Shown piece after piece: positions 27,682-55,767 of a stretch of DNA of 64,000 bases. Position 1 is the first letter of the stretch; every line of letters starts with the position of its first letter. The translations under genes were made by a program, and so were the position numbers. The stretch comes from Bacilli bacterium. Lineage in GTDB: Bacteria; Bacillota_I; Bacilli_A; RF39; UBA660. The stretch is taken from the NCBI GenBank assembly GCA_017441845.1, contig JAFRVB010000009.1, positions 38,841 to 102,840 of the forward strand. Direction: 5' to 3'. The notes beneath the pieces are model-generated. The model was not told the origin of the DNA. It made no database searches and was given only the letters and a program-made list of their open reading frames with translations.

Positions 27682-27723
27682 TATGCATGTTAAGTGTAAA
27701 AATACGAAATAGAGGTGATTATA

Positions 27724-37070: not shown

Positions 37071-37095
37071 AAAAGAAGAAAAGGGAAGTGAAATA

Positions 37096-38397: not shown

Positions 38398-38416
38398 AAA
38401 AGAAAGGGGCAATTAT

Positions 38417-40121: not shown

Positions 40122-40124
40122 TAA

Positions 40125-40154
40125 TTGATTTAGAAAATTAATATTTGATATAAT
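40125..40154 (+). promoter_or_regulatory. Internal promoter for small pilin
   Basis: TTGATT-18 nt-TATAAT with extended TG. Confidence 0.55.
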
Positions 40155-40183
40155 TAAAATAGCAAAAATATGGAGGTGATATA

Positions 40184-40342
40184 GTGAAAGCAGCAACAGG
40201 AGAATTAAACTTAACAGTAATTACATTAATTGCTATCGGATTAGTAATTGCATTCTTTACAGCATTTCTTTATCCTGCAATTAAAAATAGTATTAAAAAT
40301 ACATGGACTAATATAAGCACTTCAACTGCACCAACAGACTAA
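40184..40342 (+). CDS. Flp-like major pilin candidate (52 aa), not in ORF track
   Basis: GGAGGTG RBS, GTG start, MKAATGELNLTVITLIAIGLVIAFFTAFLYPAIKNSIKNTWTNISTSTAPTD; size, hydrophobic helix and position fit an Flp pilin. Confidence 0.75.
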   Translation: MKAATGELNLTVITLIAIGLVIAFFTAFLYPAIKNSIKNTWTNISTSTAPTD

Positions 40343-40358
40343 TATAGGAGGTTTTTAA

Positions 40359-40886
40359 ATGAGTGACGCTATAGGAGGAACTGTAAACGTAATGTTAGTC
40401 GCAATCTTTATGGTTATAGTTTCTGGTTATATGGCTTTCAATGTAAGCTATGTAAAAGCCTTCAAAGTTAAAAATAGAATAATAGATTTAGTAGAACAAT
40501 ATGAGGGGAATTGTAATCCAACTGTTAAAAACAAATGTACTCAAAAAATAGAAGAGTACATGACAGAAATTGGTTATAATACACCAGTCGGAGCAAATAC
40601 TGGTAAATGGTGTTCAGAATCAGCAGGTTTAAGTACTGCTGCAGCAACTGGTTCAGCTGCAACTTCAGCTGGAGGATGTTGCGATCGAAATAGAGGATAC
40701 TGTATTGGAGAAGTACGTGTCCAAAACAAAAAAGTTTCGGGTGGAAAACTAGTAGGAGATACAAAATCATATTATAGAGTTTTAACTCAAGTTAACATTG
40801 ATATACCAATAGTTAATAAGATTATGCCTAATATGAAGGTATTCCAAGTAACCGGTGAAACAAAAGTAATAAAAACAGCTGGATAA
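40359..40886 (+). CDS. TadE/G-like minor pilin
   Basis: MSDAIGG plus hydrophobic helix; Cys-rich globular domain; follows the pilin gene. Confidence 0.55.
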   Translation: MSDAIGGTVNVMLVAIFMVIVSGYMAFNVSYVKAFKVKNRIIDLVEQYEGNCNPTVKNKCTQKIEEYMTEIGYNTPVGANTGKWCSESAGLSTAAATGSAATSAGGCCDRNRGYCIGEVRVQNKKVSGGKLVGDTKSYYRVLTQVNIDIPIVNKIMPNMKVFQVTGETKVIKTAG

Positions 40887-40910
40887 AAATAGAAAAAAGG
40901 GGATGAAAAC

Positions 40911-41924
40911 ATGAATATTTTAATTACTAACAATTTAGAAAAAGAATTGTCATCCCTAGATGTTGATATAATTAAACATATATCAGGAACATATTCAACT
41001 AAGGAAATTGTTGATATGTTTAGAAATTTTTTCTATAACAAGATGATTATTGATGTTACAGCAATAGATGGTAATAATGACATAAGAAATTACCAATCAC
41101 TAGTAGAAGGATTAGATGCAGATAAATTAATTCTCTTCTTACCTGAAGGTAGTGATTATTGTAAGGCTAATTTCCTTTCAAATTTAATATCTATTGGAAT
41201 CTATAATTTTACAACTAACTTAGAGGGTATTAAATATTTATTAAAGAAATCTAATTCTTATAGTGATGTTTCACATATTCAAAAATTAGGAGGAACTAAC
41301 GCCGAATCTACAAATGAAGCAGTAACTGTTTCTCAATCAACTACTATGGAACAAGTAGTTCAAGATACTACTATCGTTTATGGTATAAGAAATGCTACTG
41401 ATCATGCAGGAGCAACTACTTTAACATATATGATGGTAAAAGAATTATCTAAAATATATGGAACAGATAAAGTATTAGGATTAGAGATTGATAAGAGTGA
41501 TTTCAAGTATTTTAAACAAAAAAACTTGTTATCCACAACAGCAAACAATGCTAGACAGGCAATTGGTCAATCAGGCGCAAAATATGTCATTATAGATTTA
41601 AATAAATCTACAGATTCATCTATGTGTAACGTAATAATATATCTAATTGAACCATCAATTGTTAGACTAAATAAAATGATTGATAGAAATAAATTAGTAT
41701 TAGAAAAATTAAAAAATAAGATGGTAATATTAAACAAAAGTTTATTATCAAATAAAGATGTTAATGATTTAGAATATGAATCAGGATTAAAAATATTTTA
41801 TAATATACCACCATTAAACGATCGAAAAAATAATGAAATAATAGTAGACTTTCTAGGTAGAATTAATTTAATTCAAAAACCTAATGATGGTGACAAAAAA
41901 ATATTTGGTCTATTTAGACGCTGA
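40911..41924 (+). CDS. CpaE/TadZ-like protein (degenerate receiver plus MinD/ParA-like domain)
   Basis: N-terminal atypical receiver-like domain; degenerate Walker A ATDHAGATT, EID, IIDL. Confidence 0.55.
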   Translation: MNILITNNLEKELSSLDVDIIKHISGTYSTKEIVDMFRNFFYNKMIIDVTAIDGNNDIRNYQSLVEGLDADKLILFLPEGSDYCKANFLSNLISIGIYNFTTNLEGIKYLLKKSNSYSDVSHIQKLGGTNAESTNEAVTVSQSTTMEQVVQDTTIVYGIRNATDHAGATTLTYMMVKELSKIYGTDKVLGLEIDKSDFKYFKQKNLLSTTANNARQAIGQSGAKYVIIDLNKSTDSSMCNVIIYLIEPSIVRLNKMIDRNKLVLEKLKNKMVILNKSLLSNKDVNDLEYESGLKIFYNIPPLNDRKNNEIIVDFLGRINLIQKPNDGDKKIFGLFRR

Positions 41925-41926
41925 TA

Positions 41927-41955
41927 TTGACAAATTATTAATAAAAAAATATAAT
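41927..41955 (+). promoter_or_regulatory. Perfect-consensus sigmaA promoter for VirB2-like pilin 1
   Basis: TTGACA-17 nt-TATAAT. Confidence 0.8.
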
Positions 41956-41979
41956 TATAGTAGGTAGAGGAGAGATTTT

Positions 41980-42321
41980 ATGAACAAGTATTTTTTAATA
42001 GGAACAAACACTGATTTATCATCAGATTGTATGGGACTTGAACCATTTGTAAAAATAGTAAAGAAAGCATTACTTCCAATGTTCTATATCATAATTCCAA
42101 TTGCTTTAATTTTATATGGAGTTATTGATTTAGGAAAAGCAGTTATTGCTTCAGATGAAAAGGAAATTAAGGAAGCTCAAGGAAAATTAATTAAGAGATT
42201 TATATATGCTGCTTTAGTATTCTTAATTGTCTTCTTAGTTTCATTATTGATGCAAATTGTATCAACATCAAGCGTTGGAGATACAAATGCATGGTTCGCA
42301 TGTTGGAAACATATAAAATAG
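41980..42321 (+). CDS. VirB2/TrbC-like T4SS pilin 1
   Basis: Two hydrophobic helices with a charged loop (DLGKAVIASDEKEIKEAQ...KRFIYAALVF), Cys near each end. Confidence 0.7.
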   Translation: MNKYFLIGTNTDLSSDCMGLEPFVKIVKKALLPMFYIIIPIALILYGVIDLGKAVIASDEKEIKEAQGKLIKRFIYAALVFLIVFLVSLLMQIVSTSSVGDTNAWFACWKHIK

Positions 42322-42345
42322 TAAATTTGTTTACTATTTTTTTTT
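42317..42345 (+). terminator. Terminator after pilin 1
   Basis: AATAGTAAA-tttg-TTTACTATT-TTTTTTT. Confidence 0.7.
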
Positions 42346-42425
42346 GTAAACAAAAGTAAGAATAATTGATATTTTTCCCTTGATTTGATATACTTATTAT
42401 GATAATAATAAGAGATGTGATTCAT

Positions 42426-42887
42426 ATGAAAAAGTCAATTTTTATTTTATTTATATTAATAATTGGTATCTTAGTAATGGTACCTAAAAACACATATGCT
42501 TATACTAATGGATATGTATTGACGACAACTAACAGTCAAGATGTAAATGAATACATTAATAGTGTAAAAAGTGGAAACGTATATAAACAAGATGCTTCAT
42601 CATGTAATTCATTATTGGGTAATCCAAATGAACCTGATTCAGTAGCTTGGTTATTATATAAAATTTTGAACTATATGAGAGTTTTAGGTCCACTAGCAGT
42701 AATTGTACTAAGTGGAATAGAATTTACTAAAGCTATCGTAAATAGTGATGATGATACAATGAAGAAAGCCACGGGTCATCTGAAAACGAGACTTATTATG
42801 GCAGCCTTACTATTCTTAATACCTACAATCACTAAGTTATTGTTCCAAGTATTTGGAATAGCTACTGATTGTGGAATACTTAATTAA
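42426..42887 (+). CDS. VirB2/TrbC-like T4SS pilin 2 (with signal peptide)
   Basis: Signal peptide ...NTYA; paralogous hairpin EFTKAIVNSDDDTMKKA...RLIMAALLFL; Cys pair. Confidence 0.7.
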   Translation: MKKSIFILFILIIGILVMVPKNTYAYTNGYVLTTTNSQDVNEYINSVKSGNVYKQDASSCNSLLGNPNEPDSVAWLLYKILNYMRVLGPLAVIVLSGIEFTKAIVNSDDDTMKKATGHLKTRLIMAALLFLIPTITKLLFQVFGIATDCGILN

Positions 42888-42913
42888 TAGTATGGCCTGA
42901 AAGAAGGGATTAG

Positions 42914-45121
42914 ATGATTTTAGACTTTGAAGTCAACGAAGATCAGCCTGGCGTTGGCAACAATCTAATCAGAATCATATTTAGTAAGCTTGATTTTGTT
43001 GCATTCTCATTGATGAAATTCATGTATGAAATATTCTTCAATGTTGCAACTGCAGAGTTCTTCAGTAATGCAACTATCAGAAGCTTCTATGGAAGAGTCC
43101 AATTAATACTTGGAGTTTTTATGGTGTTTAGATTATCTATCGTAGTACTTCAAACTCTAATAGACCCAGAAAAAATAAATGATAAAAATGAAGGCTTTGG
43201 TGCCATTATTAAGAGAGTAGTTCTAGGTTTATTATTACTAGCTGCTTTAACTCCGATAAATGTACCAAATGCTAGTAATGATTTTGAAATAGAATTAAAC
43301 AATAATGGTTTAATATTCGGAACACTTTATTCCCTACAGAATCGAATATTAGCTAATAATACAATAGGTCGAATAGTCTTAGGTACCACAGACACCAATA
43401 CGGGTACCAATGAATCGGCTAATTCAACGGCCCAGACGGATAATGAAGGAAAGCGGCTAAGTTCAATGGCCAATGTCTTTACTTCAACGATAATGCGTAT
43501 CTTTGTCAGGATAAATCTCCGAGGCGAAGATACATCGAATCCTCGTAAACTGGATGCTAATGGCAATGTCGATATGACGGATAACAGTAACTGGATGTGT
43601 GATATAGAAAATGGTGTATTAGAAACATATACTAGACTAGATGCTGATCCAGCAGACTTAACTTCAAATGCTCTTTTAACCACAACTTGTGGTAATGGAA
43701 AAATAGCATCTGCATTTAATAAGATTTCAGGACATAACTTGTGGTATTCAGGAAAAGCAAGATATGCCTTTAACTATATTCCAATTCTAGGAACTATAGT
43801 GGCGATAATAATGACAGTTATCCTATTAGGATTTACAGTAGATATAGCTGTCCGTGCGATTAAATTATCAGTATTAAGATTGATCGCACCAATCCCAATA
43901 ATTGCTTATATGGGACCACAATCAAAAGATAATAATGCGTTCTCTAACTGGGTTAAAGCAGTTGTTGGAACATATTTAGATTTATTTATACGTTTAGCAG
44001 TTGTATTCTTTGTACTATTCTTAATTCAAGATATTTTAGTAAATGGAATTACAATAAACATTGGTGGAGGAATTGTTGGAGCATTCTCAATGATCTTCAT
44101 CATAATCGGTTTATTTATCTTTGCTAAACAAGCACCACAATTTATTAAAGATGTATTAGGTATTAAATCATTTGGTTCAAATATTGGACTTGCTACTATT
44201 ATGGGTGGACTTGGTTCAATTAGAGGTGGAGGAATCGGTATGGCCTCAGGTGCCTTAAATGCATTCAGAGAGCAAACTGATGCTGCTGCTCAAGGAAAAC
44301 AAGCTCCAGGAATCATGGATACTTGGAGACAATCAACTGATAATATGGCTAAGATTAGAACTGGAGATAAACAAGCTCACGGTGGACCACTTGGAGCATT
44401 ACAAGATAGATTAGCATATCAAAATAGAGAAGCTGCTGCTGATAGACTTGGTATTGGTAGTAGGGACTTTGCTAGAGCTTCATATGTTAATAAAGCTAAT
44501 AAGCTAGATATGGAAAATAAAGAGGCTGAAATGAATGCTGCTAATAAAGATCTTGCAAGATATCAACGTAATGGTGGTATGATGACAAGAGCACAATTAG
44601 CTCAAGAACATGGTCTAACTGATCAACATGAAATTGATAATGCATACAGTGCATACAAACAACAATATGCTCAAGCTGAACAAAGAGCTAGAACAGCTGA
44701 AGCAGAATATAAAGAAGCTGCTAATAAATACTCTGATTCTAAAGACAACGTAGAGAGAATGAGCAAAGAAAGACAAGCTATGGATGTTCTTCCAAGAATT
44801 GTCGATGTTGAAAGACATCATGGTAAAAATTACCAAGGTGTGGCTGGAAGAGTACAAGATGCAATTTACTATAGAGAACCACAAAAAGTTGTTACAGATT
44901 CTAATAAAGTTGCCATTGATTCTAATGGCCAACAAACTCAAAATGTGGAAGATTATCAATACGAAAGAAGCAACGAAGGTTACGATGGTGCTGTTGATGA
45001 TACAACATTCTTAAGTATAGCTTCTGGTCATGGAACTGGACAAGGTGGACCATCTGGAGGAGGCGGAGGCCCTATAGGAGGACCGCCACCAGGAGGAGGA
45101 TCTCCACCACCTACACCGTAG
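42914..45121 (+). CDS. Extended VirB6/TrbL-like T4SS channel subunit
   Basis: N-terminal TMs, extracellular loop, AVRAIKLSVLRLIAPIPI...WVK core TMs, KQAP motif, ~330 aa hydrophilic C-terminal tail. Confidence 0.75.
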   Translation: MILDFEVNEDQPGVGNNLIRIIFSKLDFVAFSLMKFMYEIFFNVATAEFFSNATIRSFYGRVQLILGVFMVFRLSIVVLQTLIDPEKINDKNEGFGAIIKRVVLGLLLLAALTPINVPNASNDFEIELNNNGLIFGTLYSLQNRILANNTIGRIVLGTTDTNTGTNESANSTAQTDNEGKRLSSMANVFTSTIMRIFVRINLRGEDTSNPRKLDANGNVDMTDNSNWMCDIENGVLETYTRLDADPADLTSNALLTTTCGNGKIASAFNKISGHNLWYSGKARYAFNYIPILGTIVAIIMTVILLGFTVDIAVRAIKLSVLRLIAPIPIIAYMGPQSKDNNAFSNWVKAVVGTYLDLFIRLAVVFFVLFLIQDILVNGITINIGGGIVGAFSMIFIIIGLFIFAKQAPQFIKDVLGIKSFGSNIGLATIMGGLGSIRGGGIGMASGALNAFREQTDAAAQGKQAPGIMDTWRQSTDNMAKIRTGDKQAHGGPLGALQDRLAYQNREAAADRLGIGSRDFARASYVNKANKLDMENKEAEMNAANKDLARYQRNGGMMTRAQLAQEHGLTDQHEIDNAYSAYKQQYAQAEQRARTAEAEYKEAANKYSDSKDNVERMSKERQAMDVLPRIVDVERHHGKNYQGVAGRVQDAIYYREPQKVVTDSNKVAIDSNGQQTQNVEDYQYERSNEGYDGAVDDTTFLSIASGHGTGQGGPSGGGGGPIGGPPPGGGSPPPTP

Positions 45122-45154
45122 GATAGAATAATAAAAAAAGGAGTGTGATACTAC

Positions 45155-45481
45155 GTGAATAATTACTTGATACCTGCTAATACAAAACAAGGAAAATTAA
45201 TAATGGGATTATTTAAACCAATAGATTTAATACTATTTGGTACAGGAATATTGATTACTTTAATAATGTTAGCGTTTGCTCAAAACAGTTCATTATTATT
45301 TACAATATTATCCTTACTTCCTGGTTTAATTACTGCTTTCTTAGTAGTACCCATTCCTAATTATCACAATATTTTAACAATAATAATTGAAATGTATGAG
45401 TTCATTACTCATAATCAAACTTATAAATGGAGAGGTTGGTGTGTGACAAATGGCGCAAGTAAAAAAAGAATCAAAAAATAA
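45155..45481 (+). CDS. PrgI/VirB3-like small membrane protein
   Basis: YLIPAN...GLFKPIDL, two TMs, precedes VirB4. Confidence 0.65.
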   Translation: MNNYLIPANTKQGKLIMGLFKPIDLILFGTGILITLIMLAFAQNSSLLFTILSLLPGLITAFLVVPIPNYHNILTIIIEMYEFITHNQTYKWRGWCVTNGASKKRIKK

Positions 45482-46031
45482 TACACAAGTAAAAGCAACA
45501 ACTAACTGGACTGAAGATTGGCTTCCAGTTAAAAGTATTCAAAACAACTGTATTATTACTAAAAGTAATTTGAAAGTGACAGGGGTTAAAATAACTCCAC
45601 GAAATATCTTTATTTTAGATCTAGATTCTCAAAATAGAGTATTGACTGGATTAAAGAATTTTTATAACATGCTTGATTTTGAATTCTGGCTAGTTGTAGC
45701 AGACCGTCCAGTTGATTTAAGCGTGTACATGTCACAATTACAACTTCTATATAACGAAACACAATCTCAAGCAATAAGAAAATTAATTGCTCAAGACTTA
45801 GATAAAGGAACTTCATTTATAAGAAATAATATAGTTGATACAGAATATTACTTCTTGTTTAAAGATAAAGATCAAGATGTAATAGATAAAAAGATCAGAT
45901 TAATGATAAATGGTCTAGCAACTTGTGGACTAAATGCTTCCCAAGTAAATAATGAAGATTTAAGAGTAATCTTAGATAACTTCTTAAATGGTGGAACTAA
46001 AACTGAGTTTGGGACGGTGATGAGTATATGA
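45450..46031 (+). CDS. TrsD-like / VirB4 N-terminal-like accessory protein
   Basis: WLPVKSI, VKITPRNIF, RPVDL, EYYF, L..CGL; stop overlaps the VirB4 start (ATGA). Confidence 0.55.
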   Translation: MAQVKKESKNNTQVKATTNWTEDWLPVKSIQNNCIITKSNLKVTGVKITPRNIFILDLDSQNRVLTGLKNFYNMLDFEFWLVVADRPVDLSVYMSQLQLLYNETQSQAIRKLIAQDLDKGTSFIRNNIVDTEYYFLFKDKDQDVIDKKIRLMINGLATCGLNASQVNNEDLRVILDNFLNGGTKTEFGTVMSI

Positions 46032-47821
46032 GTTTAAATTTTAGAAGTCAAGTAGCCCCAAAAGGTTTAAGTTTTTCACCAAGTGATTTTTACATAAGTG
46101 ATCATTATGCAACTATTTTAACAGTAGTTTCATATCCAAAATATATTTTACCTGGTTATTTATCATCTTTAACTAATATGTCTGGAATTAAGGTTGTTGT
46201 AAAACATATACCAGTTCCATTTACAGATATGGCTAAGATGTTAAATAAACAAGTTGCAGAATTAAGAGAACAATATAAAAATGAACGTGATCAAACTGCC
46301 AGAGAACGTATTAGACAAGATGCTGAATCTTTAGAATATTTCACATCAATGCTAGCTGGTTCTCAAGCTAAAATATTTGATTATCAAATGCATATCATGA
46401 TTACAGCAGGAACAAAAGAAGAATTAGAAATTAAAAAAATTAATGTTAAGAATTATTTAGATGCGATGGAATTAAAAGCAGTATCACTACGTTTTGAACA
46501 AGAAAAGGTATTAAAATCAATTTTACCTGTCTTTCCAAAACAAGATATTGAAGAGAGAATTGGTACACCAATACCAAGTGTAACAATTTCAGCTATGTAT
46601 CCATTCATCTTCGATAGTGTAAAAGATCCAGGATTATCAACACTACTTGGTGTAGATTTCTCTGGAGGAGTTATATTATTTAATCAATTCTTATATAAAA
46701 TTAGAAAAGAAAACAATAGAAATAACGCTAATATGATTATTTTAGGTACATCTGGTTCTGGTAAATCTACAGCAGCTAAATTGATGCTTAGAACTCATAT
46801 TAGAAATGGATGTCAAATAGTAATAATCGATCCAGAAGATGAGTTGAGAGAAATGACTCAAACTTTTGGAGGAGATACAGTAGATATTGGTAAAGGTGGA
46901 GAATTTGGACTTATCAATCCATTAGAAGTGGTAATAGATGCTGATGAAGAAGAAATTAGACAAGGACTTGGTTATACAGTATTGACGAGAACACTTCAAT
47001 TCTTAAGAGCATTTATGACATACTATGATCCATCTATGCAAGATGATGTTCTTACAATGTTTTCTGAAGTAGTACAAGATACATATAAACGTTTCGGAAT
47101 AGATTTTAATACAGATTTCTCTAGATTTACATCAGAGGATTATCCAACATTTAGTGATGTATACGCTACTATAAAGGGACGTTTAATGGCAATGACTGAT
47201 CAAACACATGAAAAAGATATTATGGAAAGATTAGAGTTAAAAGTTAGACCTATCGTAAATGAATTAAAATTCTATTTTGATGGTAAAACTACTCTAAGAA
47301 AAGATTCTGATTTTATGGTATTTAATATTAAAGAATTAATGAATTCTGATTCTAATATTAGAAATGCACTATTCTTTAATGTATTAAAATATGCTTGGAG
47401 TCTATGTTTAGACTTCAATGTAAATACAGTACTAATGGTTGATGAAGCACATGTTTTATTAGGAGATAAGAACGCTTTAGGAGCTGAATTCTTATCACAA
47501 GTACAAAGACGTGCTAGAAAATATAATACTGGTACAATTCTAATTACACAGCAACCATCAGACTTTGTTGCGAATGAACAAATCTTGATGCATGGTAAAG
47601 CTATTTTCGATAATGCTTCATACTATTTAGTAATGGGCTTAAAGAAACAAGCTGTTGAAGATTTAAGTTTATTAATAGATTTAAACGAAAGTGAAAAAGA
47701 GGGTATTAAGAGATATTCTCAAGGAGAAGCACTATTTGTCTGCGGTAATAAACGTATGCAAATAAATGTTGCTGTAACTAAAGAAGAATTAGAATCATTC
47801 GGTTCTGGAGGAGGTTTCTAG
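46028..47821 (+). CDS. virB4: VirB4/TrsE-like T4SS ATPase
   Basis: Walker A GTSGSGKS, IDPEDE, INPLE, Walker B MVDEAH, RRARKY, ITQQPSDF. Confidence 0.9.
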   Translation: MSLNFRSQVAPKGLSFSPSDFYISDHYATILTVVSYPKYILPGYLSSLTNMSGIKVVVKHIPVPFTDMAKMLNKQVAELREQYKNERDQTARERIRQDAESLEYFTSMLAGSQAKIFDYQMHIMITAGTKEELEIKKINVKNYLDAMELKAVSLRFEQEKVLKSILPVFPKQDIEERIGTPIPSVTISAMYPFIFDSVKDPGLSTLLGVDFSGGVILFNQFLYKIRKENNRNNANMIILGTSGSGKSTAAKLMLRTHIRNGCQIVIIDPEDELREMTQTFGGDTVDIGKGGEFGLINPLEVVIDADEEEIRQGLGYTVLTRTLQFLRAFMTYYDPSMQDDVLTMFSEVVQDTYKRFGIDFNTDFSRFTSEDYPTFSDVYATIKGRLMAMTDQTHEKDIMERLELKVRPIVNELKFYFDGKTTLRKDSDFMVFNIKELMNSDSNIRNALFFNVLKYAWSLCLDFNVNTVLMVDEAHVLLGDKNALGAEFLSQVQRRARKYNTGTILITQQPSDFVANEQILMHGKAIFDNASYYLVMGLKKQAVEDLSLLIDLNESEKEGIKRYSQGEALFVCGNKRMQINVAVTKEELESFGSGGGF

Positions 47822-47845
47822 ACCATATAAAAAGAAGGTGAGGAA

Positions 47846-50176
47846 ATGGCATCATATCAAGCTAATAGAGATGGTATGGATGGTGGAGACAGAGCTGCTC
47901 AAAGCTATTCAGATCAGAAAAAAGCTGAAGATAAGAGAAGCGATGAAAATAATGCTAAAAACATACAAAATGCTGCTGATGTTGCCATTGCTTCCAAAAA
48001 TCCTTATGCTATGGCTGCAGGAGCAGCTGTAAAAGGTGCAGATAAAGTTACTGGTGGAAAAGCCTCAAAAGCTCTAGGTAAAGCACTTACTAGATCTAAC
48101 AAATTTAATCCTGCTGGTAAAAAAATCCAGGATGCTTCTAATAAATTAAGTGAAAGTGGAGCAAGTGATGCCATTGGCAAAGTTGCTTCAATGAAAGGTG
48201 GCGCTGGAGGTGCCGAAGCAGGAACAGCAGGGGCAGCCGGTAAAGCTAATGCTGCAAGTGATATGTCAAAAGCAGGAGGAGGACCAGAAAGTTCTCTTCC
48301 TTCTTCTAGTGGAGAAGGCTCTGCTTTAGATAAAATAGGTGGAGGAAAGAAGTCTAGTTCTAAAGATTCCTCAAAACCAGAAGAAAAACCATCTGATCCA
48401 GGAGAAGGAAACTATGATTTTTCTAAAGGTTTATTAAAGATGATAATGGCTAATCCAGTAGCTATTGCTTTAGTTTTTGGATTACCAATCTTAATCGCAA
48501 TATCATTCATGACAGTAATGTTAATCAACAGTATAGAAGAAGATTCTAAATATGAAGATGCTCTAGCAGTTTCAACAGCTACAGGAGGCGCCACAGGTTA
48601 TACACAATATAATTCAATGAATGATGAATTTAGAGATTATATTCAAAGAGTTATAGGTGTTACTGGAGACGATGGAACTAGTGATAGTTATACTTCATAT
48701 AATGATAGTCCATATCTAATTGTTGTCGGAACAGTACATGTCATAATGGATAAAGATGGTACTTATACTTATGAATATTTTACTAATGGTAAATTAAGAA
48801 AAATAGCTAGAGCGGTCGCTGGAGATGAACAAGGTACTAAAACTAATCTAGCTAATAATATTTTTCCAAAATATTTCCCTGGATTATCTCAAGGAGAATA
48901 TGAGAATTTAGCTGATAGAGTATTTGAATATATTACTAATTATTATAGTTATATAGGTGCCAATCGAAATAGTGGAGTATGTGTTCCTACATCTACTAGT
49001 AATTGTACTTATGGAATAAAAGGATTCTATATTCCTGGAAAAGGTAATGTTAAAGAAGAACTAAATCTTAATAATGTTAAAGTTAGAATAATGGATTGTA
49101 ATGATAGTTCTAAAGCTGTTGCTGGTGAAGATTTAGTTGATTTTGAAAAATATGTTTTAGGTGTTGCTTATGCTGAAAATGAAGGGGCACCTGAAGAAGC
49201 TTTTAAAACACAATTGATTGCGGCTCGTAGTTTTATTCTTGCTAGACATGCTGATATGGGTGGCAAGATTAAAAAAGAGGGCGATAACTATATAATAGAA
49301 GCTAGATCATGTACTAAAGATCAAGTTTATTGTAATCCTGATTTAGGATGTTCAAAAACTAATGGTAACATGCGAAGTGGAACTGATTATACTTTATATA
49401 AGAAAGCTATTCCAAGTGATAGTAAATATCGTTCTTGGGCAAAAGAAGTAGAAGGAAAAGTTCTACTTAATGATCAAGGTTATGTTGTTTATACTGGCTA
49501 TAAACGAAAAGAACAAACTCAATTTAATTCTTTAGCAAAAGCAGGAAAAGATTATAAACAAATATTACTTGAAGTATATAGTTCTTCTAAAGCTTCTAGT
49601 ATTGGAGGATCTAGTTGTTCAACTTCAGAAGCATGTGCTTCAGTAGGTACAGCAGCCTCAGGAGACTATACAACGTGGAAACAAACAAATAGTTTATGGG
49701 GAAGTATACCTTTAGGTAATTCTTCAACAGATATAGCTAATTCTGGTTGTACAGTAACTTCTATTGCTATGCAGATAAAAAGAAGTGGAGTAGACACTTC
49801 TAATGTTCAAGGAGATTTTAATCCAGGTACTTTTGTTCAAGGATTAAATAAAATTGGTGGATTTGCTGATAATGGAGGAATAATTTGGGAAAAAGTAACT
49901 GAATTAGTTCCACACTTTAAATATATAACTACTAAAGAAGTAAGAGGTAAAACTCAAGAAGAAAAATTAAATGAATTAAGAAATTTAGTAGGAAAAGGAT
50001 ATTATGTAGTTGCTGAAGTTAAAGGAGCAACCCAAAACTCACAACACTGGGTTGCTGTAAATCAAGTAGTAGGAAATACTATTACAATGATGGATCCAGG
50101 TTCTTCAGCAACAGATATGTGGAAAACATATGACCCTGTTAAAACAACATTCTTTGTATGTTATAAAGCTGATTAG
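47846..50176 (+). CDS. Membrane-anchored cell-wall hydrolase: SpoIID/LytB-like plus peptidase C39-like domains
   Basis: G/A/S-rich N-terminus, TM; FEKYVLGVAYAEN...EAFKTQLIAARSF...DQVY; WKQ..WG..LG...SGCTVTSIAM...HWV...DPG. Confidence 0.75.
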   Translation: MASYQANRDGMDGGDRAAQSYSDQKKAEDKRSDENNAKNIQNAADVAIASKNPYAMAAGAAVKGADKVTGGKASKALGKALTRSNKFNPAGKKIQDASNKLSESGASDAIGKVASMKGGAGGAEAGTAGAAGKANAASDMSKAGGGPESSLPSSSGEGSALDKIGGGKKSSSKDSSKPEEKPSDPGEGNYDFSKGLLKMIMANPVAIALVFGLPILIAISFMTVMLINSIEEDSKYEDALAVSTATGGATGYTQYNSMNDEFRDYIQRVIGVTGDDGTSDSYTSYNDSPYLIVVGTVHVIMDKDGTYTYEYFTNGKLRKIARAVAGDEQGTKTNLANNIFPKYFPGLSQGEYENLADRVFEYITNYYSYIGANRNSGVCVPTSTSNCTYGIKGFYIPGKGNVKEELNLNNVKVRIMDCNDSSKAVAGEDLVDFEKYVLGVAYAENEGAPEEAFKTQLIAARSFILARHADMGGKIKKEGDNYIIEARSCTKDQVYCNPDLGCSKTNGNMRSGTDYTLYKKAIPSDSKYRSWAKEVEGKVLLNDQGYVVYTGYKRKEQTQFNSLAKAGKDYKQILLEVYSSSKASSIGGSSCSTSEACASVGTAASGDYTTWKQTNSLWGSIPLGNSSTDIANSGCTVTSIAMQIKRSGVDTSNVQGDFNPGTFVQGLNKIGGFADNGGIIWEKVTELVPHFKYITTKEVRGKTQEEKLNELRNLVGKGYYVVAEVKGATQNSQHWVAVNQVVGNTITMMDPGSSATDMWKTYDPVKTTFFVCYKAD

Positions 50177-50188
50177 AAGGAGATTAAT

Positions 50189-50992
50189 ATGAAAAAAAAT
50201 ACTCAAGTCGCAATAATAGTAATTATTTCATTGACAATATTCTTGTTAGTATTTTTCCTATTCTCTAATAGAGATGGAGTAGTTTTTACTTCTTCTAAGA
50301 GTGAAGGCTATTTAATAGTAGGTCAAAACTCTATGTTTTCTTATCATAATAAGAAAATATATAATGTACCAATCAATAGTAATGTAATGAAAGAATTAGA
50401 TTGGAATGAATTCAAAGTATTAGATAATTATAAAGTTAAAGGAAATTATCTAATGCACTTTGATGAAAAATGGTATTTATTTACTAAAGATAGAAAAGCT
50501 GTTACTTATGAAAGTGATAGTATTATAGCTTATAAAGCTAATTATAAAATGAACTATGTATATAAAGAATCTATTCCTATAGTAGATAATGAATATGTAG
50601 AGAAAGTTGCTGATAAAAAAGGTGTGGCAGCAGAAAATTTAACTGTTAATGAAGAAGTAAATATGGATATAGATAATGATGGTAAAAATGAAACTTTCTA
50701 TCTAATAAGTACAGCTTTACCAGTAATACCTACAGAGGATAAAGAGTACTCTATAGTATTCATGGTTAAAGATGGCAAAATCTATAATATTTATGATACT
50801 TTAGTAGCTAAAATAATTCCTGATATATGTCAACCTAAGATAGAAGGATTTATTAATTTAAATGAAAATAATAAGTATGAAGTAATACTTTCTTGTAGTA
50901 CGATTGGACCTCGTGAACAAAAAGTTTATTTGTATGAAATGACTAAGAAAAATGGTAATTTACAATTTGAATTAAAAGCATCTAATACATAG
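50189..50992 (+). CDS. Single-pass membrane protein with DIDNDGKNE Ca-binding-like motif
   Basis: N-terminal TM; DxDxDG motif; Cys pair. Confidence 0.6.
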   Translation: MKKNTQVAIIVIISLTIFLLVFFLFSNRDGVVFTSSKSEGYLIVGQNSMFSYHNKKIYNVPINSNVMKELDWNEFKVLDNYKVKGNYLMHFDEKWYLFTKDRKAVTYESDSIIAYKANYKMNYVYKESIPIVDNEYVEKVADKKGVAAENLTVNEEVNMDIDNDGKNETFYLISTALPVIPTEDKEYSIVFMVKDGKIYNIYDTLVAKIIPDICQPKIEGFINLNENNKYEVILSCSTIGPREQKVYLYEMTKKNGNLQFELKASNT

Positions 50993-51018
50993 ACAGTTTT
51001 AAAAAGTTAAGATATAAT
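50990..51018 (+). promoter_or_regulatory. Internal promoter for VirD4
   Basis: TAGACA-17 nt-TATAAT. Confidence 0.55.
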
Positions 51019-51042
51019 ATTAAATGAGAAAGGACGAAGTAT

Positions 51043-53298
51043 ATGAAACTAAAATTACGTGTTGATTCAGATGATTTATTAATGTTTGGTGTATTTGCAG
51101 TATTCTTACTATATGTAATAGCTGTATTAATTTTAAATGTTTCACATTTAGCATCAGAAGGTTCATTATCTGGATTAAACCCATTTCCAGCTTTTGGTCC
51201 TAAATATATAGCAATTACTATACCTTTATGGCTACTAGGATTAGGTGCCATTCTTTTCAGTGTTAAATCATATATCTTTGAAAGAGATACAGGAATAGGT
51301 TTAACTACTGAAAAAGTATCTAAAGGTTATTCAAGATGGGCAAAAGATAAAGAAGTTCAAAATGATGCAGACATGATGGAAATAGATGTCTATGATAAGA
51401 ATGTTAAAGGTGCAGGAGTACCATTAATACTTAAAAAAGATAAACTTTGGGTAGATAATGGAGAATATCATACTTTAGTTATTGGATCTACTGGTTCAGG
51501 TAAAACTCAAACAGTAGTTTTCCCTATGGTTAGAGTTCTAGCTCGTCATGGAGAAAGTATGATTATTACTGACCCTAAAGGTGAAATCTATGAAAAGACA
51601 GCTAATATGCTTCGTAAAAAAGGTTATCAAATATTATTATTAAACTTCCGTGATCCTCAAAGAGGTAATGCTTGGAATCCGATGAGCCTACCTTATAGCC
51701 TATATCAACAAGGAAATCAAGATAAAGCTATCGAGTTATTAGATGACTTAGCACTAAATATTTTGTATGATGCTTCATCTAATCAACAAGATCCATTCTG
51801 GGAGAAAACTTCAGCTGATTACTTCGCAGGTATTGCCCTAGGTTTATTTGAGGATGCTAAACCAGAGGAAATAAACATCAATTCTATTTCTTTAGCCACA
51901 ACAGTTGGTGAAGAAAAGTTTGGTGGTTCTACATATATTAAAGAATATTTTGGAGATAAAGATCCAAGAAGTGCTGCTGCAATTGATGCATCTTCTACTA
52001 TAATGGCACCAGATGATACAAAAGATTCAATTCTAGCAGTATTCAAACAAAAAATTAAATTGTTCGCTTCACGTGAAAATTTAAGTGAAATGTTATCTTA
52101 TTCTGATATAGATATATCTACTATCGGAGAAAGAAAAACAGCTGTATTTATCGTTATTCAAGATGAAAAGAAAACATATCACGCCTTAGCGACAATTCTA
52201 TTAAAACAAATTTATGAAACACTTATTTCAACAGCTCAAAAACATGGTGGAAAACTACCAGTTAGAACAAACTTCATCTTAGATGAGTTTGCCAACATGC
52301 CACCATTAAAAGATGTTACTACTATGATTACCGCAGCTCGTTCTCGTAAGATAAGATTTACAATGATTATTCAAAACTATGCTCAATTAGATCAAGTTTA
52401 TGGTAAAGAAGAAGCTGAAACTATACGTGGTAACTGTGGTAACTTAATTTACTTATTAACTACTGAGTTAAAAGCCTTAGAAGAAATATCTAAGATGTGT
52501 GGTGAGGTTAAATCTAAGAAAGATGATAAAACAGCTTCAACACCTTTAGTAACAGTTTCAGACTTACAAAGAATGAAGAAGTTTGACGTTATCATTATGC
52601 GTACAAGACTTCAACCATTCAAAACACACTTTACTCCAGATTTTCAAATAGATTGGGGAGAAAAACCTCCTAAATCTGGATATCCAACTAGAGAAAAACG
52701 TGAAATTCATACTTTCGATATAAAACAATTTGTTAAAGATACTAAAAAGAAAAAATTATTAGAAATGATGAATCAAGATACATCTGGTTCAAATGATTCT
52801 AGAGGTGGAGGAGCTAAACCTGTACCACCAATAAGTCCATTTGAACAAAGAATTAAAGAAAAACAAGCTGAAATCAGTAAAGAAGATTCTAATATTACTC
52901 ATGAAATACCAAAACCAAGTATTGATATAAAAGAAAATGATAAGAGTTCTATCGCAATGAGTAAAGAAGAATTAAAAACAACACCATTTGGTCAATTTAA
53001 TAATGAATCAGTAATTAAACCTAATCCATTCCCATCTATCGATGTTAAAGAAGATGAAGATGATCAAGATGAATTAGAATTTGATGTGGATGAATTAGTA
53101 AAGAAAATAGATGCTAAAATAGCCGAACTAGAAAGAGAAGAAGCCTTAGAACGTCAAAAATCTAAATCCAAAGGAGCATCCTCAACTAAAGAGACTACAC
53201 CGGTTGTTGAAACTCCTCAGCAAAAACCAACTAATCTTAACTTAGAAGAATTAGATGAAGATGATGATGATTTCTTTGATGATTTCTTTGATAATTAG
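51043..53298 (+). CDS. virD4: VirD4/TraG-like type IV coupling protein
   Basis: Two N-terminal TMs, HTLVIGSTGSGKT, ITDPKGE, WNP, FILDEFAN, ARSR, IQNYAQL..YG; long acidic tail. Confidence 0.92.
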   Translation: MKLKLRVDSDDLLMFGVFAVFLLYVIAVLILNVSHLASEGSLSGLNPFPAFGPKYIAITIPLWLLGLGAILFSVKSYIFERDTGIGLTTEKVSKGYSRWAKDKEVQNDADMMEIDVYDKNVKGAGVPLILKKDKLWVDNGEYHTLVIGSTGSGKTQTVVFPMVRVLARHGESMIITDPKGEIYEKTANMLRKKGYQILLLNFRDPQRGNAWNPMSLPYSLYQQGNQDKAIELLDDLALNILYDASSNQQDPFWEKTSADYFAGIALGLFEDAKPEEININSISLATTVGEEKFGGSTYIKEYFGDKDPRSAAAIDASSTIMAPDDTKDSILAVFKQKIKLFASRENLSEMLSYSDIDISTIGERKTAVFIVIQDEKKTYHALATILLKQIYETLISTAQKHGGKLPVRTNFILDEFANMPPLKDVTTMITAARSRKIRFTMIIQNYAQLDQVYGKEEAETIRGNCGNLIYLLTTELKALEEISKMCGEVKSKKDDKTASTPLVTVSDLQRMKKFDVIIMRTRLQPFKTHFTPDFQIDWGEKPPKSGYPTREKREIHTFDIKQFVKDTKKKKLLEMMNQDTSGSNDSRGGGAKPVPPISPFEQRIKEKQAEISKEDSNITHEIPKPSIDIKENDKSSIAMSKEELKTTPFGQFNNESVIKPNPFPSIDVKEDEDDQDELEFDVDELVKKIDAKIAELEREEALERQKSKSKGASSTKETTPVVETPQQKPTNLNLEELDEDDDDFFDDFFDN

Positions 53299-53308
53299 GA
53301 GGTAAATT

Positions 53309-54577
53309 ATGGAAATTAACTTTAATGAAGGAAAAAAAGAATTAGATAATGTCCAAGAAACTGAAACTCAAGAAGAAGAAATGATTTCAGAAGATGGTGA
53401 AATAATTACTGATTATGAAGAAGATACTACTGATTATGAAAAGATTAAACAAGATAGAAATAAAGAAGAATTAAAAGGACAAATAAAAAAACTATTAATT
53501 ATAGCTGGTGTTATTCTAGGTATTATATTGTTCTTTATACTAATTGTTAGTTTATTTATGAAAAAATCATATACTTATGACGATGTTGAATTAGTAATGA
53601 AGAATGCTACTCAAAAATACTTTGTAGAGTATAAAAACTATCTACCTAAAGAAGAAGGAGATACTAGAAATGTACCTGTAGATAATTTAGTAGCTGGCAA
53701 ATATATGAAAGAATTATCATACTATTTACCAAATGATACTTGTACAGGACGTGTAACAGTAGAAAAAACAGCTGATAGTTATGACTATAGACCTTATCTA
53801 AATTGTGGAGAAAGTTATCAAACAATAGAGTTATATAAGAAAGTAGCAGGTGATGATAATATCGTTACTTCAGGTTATGGATTATATAATCTATATGGTA
53901 ATTATGTATTTAGAGGAGAAGATGTTAATAACTTTGTTAAATTAGGTGATAATCTATGGAGAATATTCAAAGTAACATCTGATGGAAATATCGGTCTAGT
54001 TTATCATGATCGTATCAGTTATTCGTCTCTAAGTTGGGATGATAGATACAATAAAGCTAAAGATTATAATATAGGTATAAATAATTATGTAACAAGTAGA
54101 GTAAAAGAAAACTTAGAAAAACTATATAATAATAAATTAGATGAAGAAGATGAGTTTAAATTATTAAATTCTAATCATAAAGAAAAATTAGCTAGATTTG
54201 ATTTATGTGTAGGTAAACGTGCTCATAAAGATAATACTAATAATAATTCTACTGAGTGTAGTGAGAAAGTTAATGATCAATTAATAGGTTTATTAACAAT
54301 ATCAGATTACATGCAAGCATCTCTAGATACTAGTTGTACTTTAACTTTATCAGAGAGTTGTCAAAACTATAATTATTTAAATACTGATTTTGCATGGTGG
54401 TTTGTTACTGCTGATGCGGCTAATACTTATGATGCTTATAACTTTACTCCAGAATACGGAGTACAAACTAAACATACTAGTAGTAGTGCTTATCTAAGAC
54501 CAGTAATCTACTTAAAGAACAATGTATTCTATAAGAGTGGAAAAGGTACTTTAGAAAAACCTTATAAAATTAAATAG
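53309..54577 (+). CDS. Surface protein paralogous to 30023 (acidic N-terminus, TM, pilin-like Cys domain, DUF6273-like)
   Basis: MKNATQKY...C...YRPYLNCG; C-terminal LRPVIYLK...GKGTLEKPYKIK. Confidence 0.65.
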   Translation: MEINFNEGKKELDNVQETETQEEEMISEDGEIITDYEEDTTDYEKIKQDRNKEELKGQIKKLLIIAGVILGIILFFILIVSLFMKKSYTYDDVELVMKNATQKYFVEYKNYLPKEEGDTRNVPVDNLVAGKYMKELSYYLPNDTCTGRVTVEKTADSYDYRPYLNCGESYQTIELYKKVAGDDNIVTSGYGLYNLYGNYVFRGEDVNNFVKLGDNLWRIFKVTSDGNIGLVYHDRISYSSLSWDDRYNKAKDYNIGINNYVTSRVKENLEKLYNNKLDEEDEFKLLNSNHKEKLARFDLCVGKRAHKDNTNNNSTECSEKVNDQLIGLLTISDYMQASLDTSCTLTLSESCQNYNYLNTDFAWWFVTADAANTYDAYNFTPEYGVQTKHTSSSAYLRPVIYLKNNVFYKSGKGTLEKPYKIK

Positions 54578-54595
54578 AGTCGTAAGACTCTTTTT
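54576..54595 (+). terminator. Terminator; right border of locus
   Basis: AGAGTC-gtaa-GACTCT-TTTT. Confidence 0.8.
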
Positions 54596-54652
54596 ATATG
54601 TTGAAAAGTATAATAGTTCATATTATAATAAAAACATAATGGAGATGATCAT

Positions 54653-55726
54653 ATGGATTATATAATTATAGGATTATTAGTATTATTAATAATATTAGTA
54701 GTAATATCTCTCTTTAAAAATATTAATGAATCTAATATTACTGAAAGATTAGGTAAATTAGAATTAAGTATGACTAAGGAATTAGGAGAATTTAAAGTAG
54801 ATATTAATAAAAACTTAAATGAAGATTTCAATAAATTAAATGAACAAGTAGAAAAAAGATTATTAAGTATTAATGAAAAAGTAAATGAAAGATTAGATCA
54901 AAACTTTGAAAAGACTAATAAGACTTTTATGAATGTTATTGAAAGATTATCTAAGATAGATGAAGCTCAAAAGAAAATAGATAATCTATCTACAGATATC
55001 GTGTCTTTACAAAGTATTCTTACTGATAAAAAGACTAGAGGTATCTATGGAGAAGTTAATCTGGCTCATATACTTGCTAGTGTCTTTGGTGAACATAATG
55101 ATAAGATTTATCGTTTGCAACATACTTTATCTACAGGAGTAATTGCGGACTCTGTGTTATTTGCTCCTAAACCATTAGGTACTATTGCTATAGACTCTAA
55201 ATTTCCACTAGAGAATTATCAATTAATGGTAGATAAAAAGTTATCAGTGTCAGACAGAGAAAAAGCTGAAAAGATGTTTAAAATGGATATGAAGAAACAT
55301 ATTGATGCGATAAGTGAAAAATATATTATACCTGGTGAAACAACTGATCAAGCCATTCTTTTCTTACCAGCTGAAGCTATATTTGCTGAAGTTAATGCTT
55401 ATCATCCAGATATAATTAATTATGCTTATAAAAAGAGAGTATGGATAACTTCACCAACAACTCTAATCTCAACTTTAACAGTCATTGAAATGATTATTAA
55501 AAATATGGAAAGAGATAAATATGCGTCTATTATTCATGATGAATTAAATAAATTAGGTTTAGAATTTGCAAGATACAAAGAACGTTGGGATAAATTAACT
55601 AGAAGTATTGATACTGTAAACAAAGATATTCAAAGTGTATCTATAACTACAGATAAGATTACTAAGAAGTTTGCTTCTATTAATAAAGTTGAAGTAGAAA
55701 ATAATGAAATAAAAGAACTTGAGTAA
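54653..55726 (+). CDS. rmuC: DNA recombination protein RmuC
   Basis: TM plus coiled coil; RGIYGEVNL, IDSKFPLENY, LFLPAEAIFAE, SPTTL. Confidence 0.93.
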   Translation: MDYIIIGLLVLLIILVVISLFKNINESNITERLGKLELSMTKELGEFKVDINKNLNEDFNKLNEQVEKRLLSINEKVNERLDQNFEKTNKTFMNVIERLSKIDEAQKKIDNLSTDIVSLQSILTDKKTRGIYGEVNLAHILASVFGEHNDKIYRLQHTLSTGVIADSVLFAPKPLGTIAIDSKFPLENYQLMVDKKLSVSDREKAEKMFKMDMKKHIDAISEKYIIPGETTDQAILFLPAEAIFAEVNAYHPDIINYAYKKRVWITSPTTLISTLTVIEMIIKNMERDKYASIIHDELNKLGLEFARYKERWDKLTRSIDTVNKDIQSVSITTDKITKKFASINKVEVENNEIKELE

Positions 55727-55739
55727 GTTCTTTTATTTT
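55711..55739 (+). terminator. Terminator after rmuC
   Basis: AAAAGAACTT-gagt-AAGTTCTTTT. Confidence 0.7.
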
Positions 55740-55767
55740 ATGTTATAATAATACTAGGAGGGCTTTT

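Follow-up and report, generated by a model that had tools for sequence, protein, structure and literature searches.

Almost all known type IV secretion systems (T4SSs) of Gram-positive bacteria serve unidirectional DNA transfer (2025 review, PMC12857230). The T4SS of the Patescibacteria is treated as unique among monoderms, being required by its host and equipped with VirB2-like pilins (PMC12857230). Here we describe a T4SS locus in a 64-kb window (contig C5, positions 38841-102840) of an 11-contig assembly of a Bacilli bacterium (783,682 bp, 27% G+C, rated 67.5% complete); unless another genome is named, positions are those of the window. As judged from its sequence, the stretch 41927-54595 encodes a complete T4SS of the Gram-positive (MPF_FATA) type. 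The locus is homologous to and collinear with plasmid conjugation regions, lacks a relaxase, occupies a fixed chromosomal site, is present in nearly all members of its family, and combines intact ATPase motifs with low ratios of nonsynonymous to synonymous substitution rates (dN/dS). With a probability of roughly 0.78, we regard it as the machinery half of a pXO2/pLS20-type conjugation region that became fixed in the chromosome, is inherited vertically, has been co-opted by the host and stands under strong purifying selection. That the system is vertically inherited and not an integrative and conjugative element (ICE) had been proposed in an earlier note on this DNA (the original prediction), and distribution, fixed site, selection and absence of a relaxase strongly support it. 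Full-text literature searches combining the lineage names RF39 and RFN20 with T4SS terms found no paper describing such a system.

The closest described systems are conjugation regions of Gram-positive plasmids and the T4SS of the Patescibacteria. In pLS20 the genes follow the order 37 (VirB11-like), 38-41 (small membrane proteins), 48 (VirD4), 49 (extended VirB6), 50, 51, 52 (VirB4), 53 (VirB8), 54 (VirB1) and 55; a single-pass protein of about 269 amino acids is encoded after the hydrolase gene, and past gene 55 lie oriT, aux1, aux2, the MobL relaxase gene (rel) and a primase gene (PMC8557374). The T4SS of the Patescibacterium Southlakia epibionticum comprises PF18895 pilins, a PrgI-like VirB3, TrsD together with a short VirB4, VirB6, and hydrolases encoded after virB4 (PMC12102498). 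The Patescibacteria system is chromosomal, has no relaxase and is essential for epibiotic growth (PMC12857230), and its coupling protein is rarely linked to virB4 and not essential (PMC12102498).

In the window, twelve co-oriented genes on the plus strand occupy positions 41980-54577. All of them are intact, and the intergenic gaps of the block do not exceed 78 nt. The components of this operon are:

41980..42321, plus strand: candidate VirB2-like pilin of 113 aa, a two-helix membrane hairpin, with weak matches to PF18895 (E 0.0095) and to the pilin-like family NF045849, Mbov_0395 (E 0.0028)
42399..42887, plus strand: T4SS_pilin-domain protein of 162 aa with a variable N-terminal ectodomain (PF18895, 5.6e-06, 26.8 bits against a cut-off of 26.6)
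42914..45121, plus strand: extended VirB6/TrbL-like polytopic channel protein of 735 aa (PF19597 TrbL_4, 5.4e-06, 26.4 bits, cut-off 27; NF045889, 7.9e-06)
45155..45481, plus strand: putative VirB3/PrgI-like small membrane protein of 108 aa, assigned by its size, its two hydrophobic segments and its position before the VirB4 genes
45450..46031, plus strand: TrsD-like protein of 193 aa, the VirB4 N-terminal domain as a separate protein (NF045975 positions 92-279 of 894, 9.6e-17)
46028..47821, plus strand: VirB4 ATPase of 597 aa (NF045975, 1.1e-103; solved VirB4 chain PDB 4AG5, 1.3e-56)
47846..50176, plus strand: VirB1-type wall hydrolase of 776 aa (PF08486 SpoIID, 4.7e-06, 27.6 bits against a cut-off of 23)
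50189..50992, plus strand: p267, a membrane-anchored, all-beta, lineage-specific surface protein (AlphaFold2 pLDDT 91)
51043..53298, plus strand: VirD4 coupling protein of 751 aa with two N-terminal membrane helices, an ATPase core and a disordered tail of about 190 aa (PF02534, 2.9e-56; PF12696, 8.4e-26)
53260..53295, plus strand: C-terminal tip of VirD4, DDDDFFDDFFDN, an invariant short motif behind a hypervariable linker
53309..54577, plus strand: p422, a membrane-anchored, Cys-rich surface protein (AlphaFold2 pLDDT 87)

Among the plasmids of PLSDB, no VirB4 exceeded 29% identity to that of the window, and the best matches were on Bacillus thuringiensis plasmids. Plasmid pBMB67 (NC_009841; pXO2/pAW63 family) encodes homologues of VirD4 (33% identity), the TrsD-like protein (26%), VirB4 (29%), RcpC (34%), CpaF (28%), TadB (22%) and TadC (23%), and the last four adjoin the plasmid's T4SS. 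With pXO2/pLS20-type regions the locus shares the sub-order TrbL/VirB6, PrgI/VirB3, TrsD-like, short VirB4 and hydrolase, the extended form of VirB6 and a Tad-like ("VirB11") module in the same conjugation region, and the single-pass protein of about 269 amino acids behind the pLS20 hydrolase is a further point of similarity. The VirB6-like gene stands at the position of the pBMB67 TrbL gene and of pLS20 gene 49 (PMC8557374). Synteny was counted over 80 species-level loci, in some of which the contig ends before the flanks; the split of VirB4 is kept in 78 of the 80 and is also seen in pBMB67 (26% identity, same-position open reading frame, ORF) and in pLS20, as gene 51 (PMC8557374). As a whole, the gene order of pLS20 37-55 matches the locus. 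The metagenomic ICE L114 likewise keeps this order of VirB6, VirB3-like, TrsD-like, VirB4 (33-34% identity) and hydrolase genes, next to sortase and pilin genes, but in contrast to the window it possesses a single-stranded DNA-binding protein (SSB), a Toprim primase and a serine recombinase. The 108-aa protein of the window had no Pfam match; it is 30% identical (E 1e-10) to the same-position ORF of L114, pBMB67 has a PrgI-family gene there, and it appears to be VirB3/PrgI-like. The collinearity with pBMB67, pLS20 and L114 argues that the chromosomal locus is the machinery half of such a region.

The plasmids differ from the locus in what surrounds the machinery. They carry a MobL/MobP3 relaxase gene beside virD4 or a segment of oriT, aux1, aux2, rel and primase, plus replication and partition genes, whereas none of these is found here. 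The pBMB67 relaxase gene (PF18555, MobL, 1.8e-22) immediately precedes virD4. In pLS20 a 300-bp oriT lies past gene 55; at the corresponding place the window has a 50-nt gap with a promoter-like site. VirD4 of the window is encoded at the operon end behind a promoter-like site of its own and ends in a FFDDFF tip that pBMB67 lacks; for p267 and p422 no plasmid homologue was found, and no NTF2/VirB8 protein was recognised. The ORF of pBMB67 at the pilin position has no PF18895 match, while one pilin gene here reaches the cut-off.

The system of the Patescibacteria is similar in other ways: it is a monoderm, MPF_FATA-derived, chromosomal and relaxase-less machine, widespread in a small-genome lineage, and its part list matches. 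In contrast to it, the locus described here belongs to another phylum (Bacillota), has a conserved coupling protein within the operon and is joined to a Tad-like module; two pilin genes stand against an array of six. A retained, specialised coupling protein and a still-recognisable plasmid ancestor set it apart from the known co-opted monoderm T4SS. The best-named NCBIfam relatives of its VirB4, VirB6-like and pilin-like proteins are the Mbov_0395/0396/0397 families of the Mycoplasma ICE (MICE), whose transfer machinery comprises CDS5/VirD4, CDS17/VirB4 and CDS16/VirB6-like. MICE share with it the lack of a classical relaxase and the broad Bacilli/Mollicutes lineage. None of the cut-offs of these families was reached: VirB4 scored 348 bits where 590 are required, and the other proteins scored 25.5 (cut-off 70) and 17-19 (cut-off 40). 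Furthermore, MICE are mobile, use a DDE recombinase and have no VirB1 (PMC12857230), whereas the locus is fixed, encodes a hydrolase and has no transposase gene within 64 kb.

According to the original prediction, no relaxase, integrase or recombinase, plasmid replication, SSB or anti-restriction gene lies in the 64 kb. Pfam scans of the ORFs agree. They covered nearly all window ORFs of at least 80 aa, with the 209-aa ORF at 62513-63142 compared only with NCBIfam-independent Pfam. Outside the block all matches were to housekeeping proteins (BipA, DnaE, LspA, KsgA, RuvX, MltG, GreA, RmuC, TrpRS, Tig, Lon and others). The block contains no primase gene, no oriT signature, no gap long enough for a typical oriT and no strong inverted repeat. 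Flanking direct repeats, also reported as missing, were indeed not found, the repeats detected being chance matches or P-loop codons, and the only tRNA gene of the window is 40 kb away.

The absence of a cognate relaxase extends to the whole assembly, in which PF03432, PF02486, PF01076, PF03389, PF13814, PF08751 and PF18555 had no match. A tblastn search of the assembly with nine relaxases of relatives, the pBMB67 relaxase and an ICE recombinase gave a best E value of 0.28. Control genomes gave at least one match for each of the seven families, although that for PF13814 stayed below the cut-off. Because the assembly is incomplete, the argument rests on relatives: none of the seven families was found in 16 operon-bearing genomes of the family, including G024 (98% complete, five contigs). 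The MOBP/MobL relaxases that were detected in relatives, each no more than about 7 kb from a VirD4 paralogue (24-39% identity) and none beside this operon, demonstrate that the search is able to find relaxases. A hidden HUH relaxase among p337, p267 and p422 was considered and rejected, since none of the three has an invariant histidine.

The family was sampled for VirD4 with 24 other genomes, one per genus outside the window's own genus (21 genera in all). Of the 24, 23 have an orthologue (52-85% identity), as have two genomes from other families. The remaining genome (G005) has only a paralogue-level match; its rmuC lies 300 bp from a contig end, and it is outside the order sample. In a class-wide sample of 399 genomes, VirB4 was found in 48 of the 49 members of the family, and outside it at 60-70% identity in only two genomes; the rest did not exceed 34%. 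The distribution of identities is thus bimodal, since orthologues have at least 60% and everything else in the class at most 34%. Within the order (151 genomes, 86 genera) VirB4 is intact, single-copy and free of internal stops in 142 genomes (81 of 86 genera; 63-88% identity). VirB4 relatives were found in 554 species-level genomes altogether, and the 80 best of them have 83-89% identity. Two orphan metagenome VirB4 proteins at 40-42% identity, found among 1.84 billion representatives, are on 2-kb contigs that give no context. Database records of the relatives are from uncultured Bacilli, "Tenericutes" and "Mycoplasma sp. CAG:877"-type organisms of human, mouse, rabbit, chicken, goat, sheep and cattle guts; their genomes, of 0.8-1.3 Mb, are from uncultured bacteria of gut or rumen.

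The chromosomal site is likewise conserved. Of the findings named in the original prediction as refuting it, a cognate relaxase was not found, and neither was an empty site within the family; every inspected genome has the block in synteny, as far as the contig allows. From greA to rmuC it is collinear in three congeners and in G024, which belongs to another genus, and in G006 with greA out of view. Pairwise VirB4 and VirD4 distances are correlated with rmuC distances (r 0.45-0.50; 0 of 2000 permutations as high). A rearrangement is seen in G014 (C5:41000-100899; L119, L022, L021), where tig directly follows the VirB4 gene and virD4 is 37 kb off. The unlinked VirD4 is intact there and ends in FFDDFF, and rmuC is absent genome-wide.

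Selection on the genes was estimated against the closest relative (dS 0.3-0.9). With a dN/dS of 0.027, VirB4 ranks below greA (0.036) and rmuC (0.050), and its mean divergence is 12% against 17% for rmuC. The TrsD-like protein follows with 0.074, the pilins with 0.13-0.14, VirD4 with 0.17 and the VirB6-like protein with 0.18; hydrolase, p267 and p422 reach 0.28-0.33. Constraint on the cytoplasmic motor thus equals that on core genes, in contrast to the fast evolution of the exposed parts. An alignment of 81 VirB4 sequences shows no variation in Walker A or in the core residues of Walker B (DEAH). VirD4 is intact as originally stated: across 64 species its Walker motifs, A (GxTGSGKT) and B (LDEF), show no or almost no variation (G151 in 63 of 64), and the protein scores 312 bits with NCBIfam NF045973 (cut-off 250).

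VirD4 is encoded in the operon in 73 of the 80 loci. In all 72 species loci (72/72) the protein ends with an acidic run, FFDDFF and one or two further residues, and the FFDDFF core is also found in G006, G019, G022, G024, G014, G246 and G037. The linker in front of this tip comprises 150-250 residues that vary freely in sequence and length. The tip is lacking in pBMB67, in four ICE paralogues and in G030, and it has no second occurrence in this genome. A disordered linker with such a short, conserved end implies that a binding partner docking on the tip is conserved as well. As analogies for such a tip we consider the tail of F-plasmid TraD, which binds TraM, and the C-terminal tip of SSB. Since the tip is invariant and clade-specific and VirD4 stays intact when unlinked, the coupling protein appears to be in use. 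The tip offers a concrete handle, as a peptide bait, for finding a cargo or adaptor.

We propose that the ancestor of the family fixed a conjugation region in its chromosome and lost oriT, the auxiliary proteins, the MobL relaxase, the primase and all integration and replication functions. Two surface proteins without plasmid homologues, p267 and p422, would have been added on domestication. The machine would be transcribed from conserved promoters of its own. The hydrolase would open the wall, and VirB6, the VirB3-like protein and the TrsD-like/VirB4 pair would form the membrane channel and its motor. VirB2-like pilins, p267 and p422 would represent a fast-evolving outer face that contacts another cell, together with the Tad-like filament and sortase-anchored adhesins encoded upstream. 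Through this machine VirD4 would deliver a cytoplasmic cargo, or an adaptor, docking on the acidic-aromatic FFDDFF tip. Probably, the host has put the machine to its own use in a cell-to-cell function, and transport of a protein or protein-bound macromolecule for the benefit of the host is more likely than self-transfer of a mobile element. Genomes of 0.8-1.3 Mb almost universally keep one copy of the machine at a fixed site, which speaks for a need on the part of the host. Export of a cytoplasmic substrate is the reading favoured by a constrained coupling protein that is encoded in the operon and has a clade-specific docking tip, and contact with another cell is the one favoured by the fast evolution of the outer parts, by the Tad-like filament next to them and by the sortase-anchored proteins. 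Tentatively, and at clearly less than even odds, we would go further and view the machine as a conjugation-derived organelle of Tad-like filament, VirB2-like pilins and T4SS channel on which these bacteria depend as their obligatory contact with other cells, a second and independent essential T4SS of the Saccharibacteria style, in Bacillota, whose coupling protein, in contrast to that case, would actively export a conserved cargo or adaptor docking on FFDDFF. Co-option would mean that the same kind of take-over happened twice, here in an unrelated lineage with small genomes that is common in the guts of humans and livestock. With a recognisable plasmid ancestor and the coupling protein in place, the conversion of a conjugation machine into a host organelle, and its cargo, become testable.

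Co-option for a host function has to be weighed against a machine that still moves DNA, either as a helper for small relaxase-only elements or by oriT-independent chromosomal exchange as in Mycoplasma ICE, with a relaxase that acts in trans, is unrecognised or is unneeded. VirD4 does retain an all-alpha domain of the DNA-binding type (PF10412, 3.4e-25) and the TraM-recognition region PF12696. Its acidic, Phe-ending tail resembles that part of F TraD which binds the relaxosome protein TraM. Six family members possess MOBV relaxases on contigs without T4SS genes, and the machinery of the Mycoplasma ICE, the source of the best-named relatives of VirB4, VirB6 and the pilins, mediates chromosomal transfer (PMC12857230). 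However, those family matches stay below their cut-offs (348 against 590 bits in the case of VirB4), and the block has no SSB, no primase and no oriT-sized gap. Mobilisation of an occasional passenger fails to explain host-level conservation in more than 140 species. We consider DNA transfer unlikely, because most family genomes, including G024, have no relaxase of the seven families and yet keep the operon under strong selection. Less probable still is a conduit through which material of a partner cell would be imported or exchanged, the role suggested for the essential Saccharibacteria T4SS, with VirD4 as an accessory. Small genomes of uncultured bacteria, fast-evolving surface parts and a part list matching the Patescibacteria system (PMC12102498), which is relaxase-less, chromosomal and essential for epibiotic growth (PMC12857230), would fit such a conduit. 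The coupling protein, however, points to export of a cytoplasmic substrate; it is kept in the operon in most loci under purifying selection and with a clade-specific tip, in contrast to a Patescibacteria counterpart that is rarely virB4-linked and dispensable. Decay of an integrated conjugative element that has shed its mobility genes and is on its way to loss is hardly credible as an explanation. The absence of relaxase, integrase and att sites would be expected of a remnant, but none of the twelve genes is disrupted, internal stops are absent from VirB4 in 142 genomes, dN/dS stays at 0.03-0.33 with invariant catalytic motifs and conserved promoters, and the same chromosomal site is occupied in at least 69 species.

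Several points weigh against co-option of a machine without a relaxase. The negative result of the relaxase search covers seven families, and MOBH, MOBB, TcpM-type and unknown families were not searched; with an assembly that is 67.5% complete, a relaxase may lie elsewhere in the strain. No cargo, effector or docking partner was identified. A VirB8-like (NTF2) protein was not recognised in searches of Pfam and NCBIfam or in the fold models of p267 and p422, which leave out the part of the hydrolase ahead of its SpoIID domain. In nine genomes of the order no VirB4 was found. For one of them (G246) the apparent absence is an assembly gap, because VirD4 and rmuC are found on a 10-kb contig. G037, of another family, has a VirB4 with 70% identity, while its confamilial G053 has only a paralogue with 25%; the block of G037 stems from a rare lateral transfer or else from a mis-binned contig. 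Finally, the RNA contigs described below were assembled from libraries that possibly hold DNA.

Transcription was assessed with bovine-gut metatranscriptome contigs. Contigs from four runs match conserved genes of the relatives with 85-95% identity. In one run, pieces cover p337 with a pilin gene, VirB6, VirB3, the TrsD-like gene, the VirD4 tail and rmuC, and a 2086-nt contig of the same run spans VirB4 into the hydrolase gene. This suggests that the operon is transcribed in vivo.

The signals around the operon, its upstream module and its flanking genes are:

27715..28194, plus strand: greA, the 5' flank of a 26-kb surface-machine block (PF03449, PF01272)
36285..41924, plus strand: Tad-like module of RcpC/CpaB, CpaF ATPase, TadB, TadC, a 52-aa Flp-like ORF, p175 and p337 (PF16976, PF00437)
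41927..41955, plus strand: sigma-70-like promoter TTGACA-17-TATAAT before the first pilin gene, the sole 12/12 match in 39500-56500
50990..51018, plus strand: second promoter-like site TAGACA-17-TATAAT (11/12), before virD4
54576..54591, plus strand: terminator-like hairpin with T-run at the p422 stop codon, the operon end
54653..55726, plus strand: rmuC, the conserved 3' flank and a separate transcription unit (PF02646, 2.4e-56)

The limits 41927-54595 given in the original prediction are apt for the T4SS operon, as a perfect promoter-like site begins at 41927 and the hairpin occupies 54576-54591. As a functional unit, however, this stretch is too small. The Tad-like module, with homologues in the conjugation regions of pBMB67 and pLS20, belongs with the T4SS, so the unit starts near 36285 and not at 41927. 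Tad-like genes precede the T4SS in about 65 of the 80 loci, where the contig reaches. A protein of this module, p337, gave a weak match to TadZ over a degenerate P-loop (hhalign E 0.0042, probability 8%) and no match in PDB; it may be TadZ-like. The 52-aa ORF at 40184-40342, between TadC and p175, is a candidate Flp-like pilin gene; its product, for which Pfam gave no match, combines a short leader of charged residues with a hydrophobic helix (MKAATGELNLTVITLIAIGLVIAFF...).

The promoter in the pilin gap is matched in at least 11 of 12 positions in 50 of 64 species loci, and TTGACA is kept in all twelve loci printed. In the virD4 gap of relatives [AT][TA]GACA-17-TATAAT recurs, with at least 11 of 12 positions in 28 of 63 loci. 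Because promoter-like sites in the region are not commoner than expected by chance, the weight of these sites rests on their conservation.

The statement that the composition broadly resembles that of housekeeping genes holds for VirB4, VirD4, hydrolase, p267 and p422, which are within the genome norm, and the proposed codon comparison showed VirB4, VirD4 and the other large genes to be genome-typical. In the genes from TadC to the TrsD-like gene the G+C content at third codon positions (GC3) is mildly raised. In TadC, p175, both pilin genes and the VirB6, VirB3-like and TrsD-like genes (39309-46031) GC3 is 0.18-0.25, compared with a genome mean of 0.132 (standard deviation 0.032). The rise corresponds to z values of +1.6 to +3.9, ends where VirB4 begins, and has a similar but weaker counterpart in relatives. 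A foreign composition of the main genes is ruled out by their genome-typical values.

Among the outer components, the 113-aa pilin candidate has orthologues in 68 of the 80 loci and a dN/dS of 0.14. Orthologues of the second pilin range from 109 to 517 aa, as the C-terminal PF18895 hairpin is kept while the size of the ectodomain differs, from about 40 to over 400 residues (including L032-L111). Of the two PF18895 pilin genes of the locus, one is above the Pfam cut-off. The VirB6-like protein carries a hydrophilic, Gly/Pro-rich C-terminal extension of about 300 aa. The hydrolase consists of a low-complexity N-terminus, a membrane segment, the SpoIID-like domain and a C-terminal Cys/His region, in which a putative peptidase (GCTVTS...QHWVAV) can be read. 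It had no match among PDB sequences and evolves fast (24-64% identity, dN/dS 0.28).

The surface protein p267 occurs in 63 of the 80 loci (dN/dS 0.31). Its model had no match among PDB folds (best E 0.012). The possibility that p267 is the missing VirB8 is not supported, given a confident all-beta model that matches nothing in PDB and does not have the NTF2/VirB8 fold. The only significant fold match of p422 was with an IgA peptidase domain from Thomasclavelia ramosa (9qa6; E 7.8e-08, 282 columns). As the sequence has no HExxH motif, this domain is probably non-catalytic. Seven Cys residues of p422 are invariant. In G014 and G022 the gene lies between the pilin gene and VirB6, which argues that p422 travels with the machine.

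With respect to the neighbours, the original prediction named greA and rmuC. RmuC is encoded by the immediate 3' neighbour, whereas greA lies 13.8 kb upstream of the T4SS genes, separated from them by sortase and adhesin genes and the Tad-like module. GreA is encoded at the same position in G004, G002, G003 and G024, and rmuC is found downstream of the operon in 69 of the 80 loci. Past the terminator-like hairpin, rmuC has a promoter-like site of its own at 54601-54629. RmuC as a surrogate DNA-processing enzyme was rejected on account of this site, of the T4SS without rmuC in G014, and of G025 and G053, members of a sister family and a more distant family that have rmuC and not the machine.

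The junction between p422 and rmuC (54577-54653) measures 76 nt here and about 1 kb in most relatives (for example L032 18732-19661 and L046 18671-19648). Its genes differ among relatives and encode either paired small membrane proteins or a rhodanese-like and a DedA-like protein. Since these genes vary between species and do not form a conserved part, they were dismissed as candidate cargo.

As to mobile relatives, L114 is a Logan contig of 14,959 bp with a SpaA-type pilin, which shows that these elements, too, carry sortase and pilin genes beside a T4SS. MOBV relaxases in the six family members are found on G021:C30, G010:C30, G022:C18, G018:C21, G002:C15/C27/C31 and G006:C1:86008, some of these contigs being small. 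They are candidate mobilisable elements, for which the resident chromosomal T4SS would be an obvious helper. The G037 segment C76:4400-24399 (L031) carries the Tad-like module and a T4SS with the FFDDFF tail. Finally, upstream of greA, at 24872-26494, a gene with a G+C content of 0.21 encodes a 540-aa DUF6020 membrane protein. It is absent from this position in three congeners, in which a U32 peptidase gene is immediately followed by an HD-domain gene, and is probably a strain-specific insertion.

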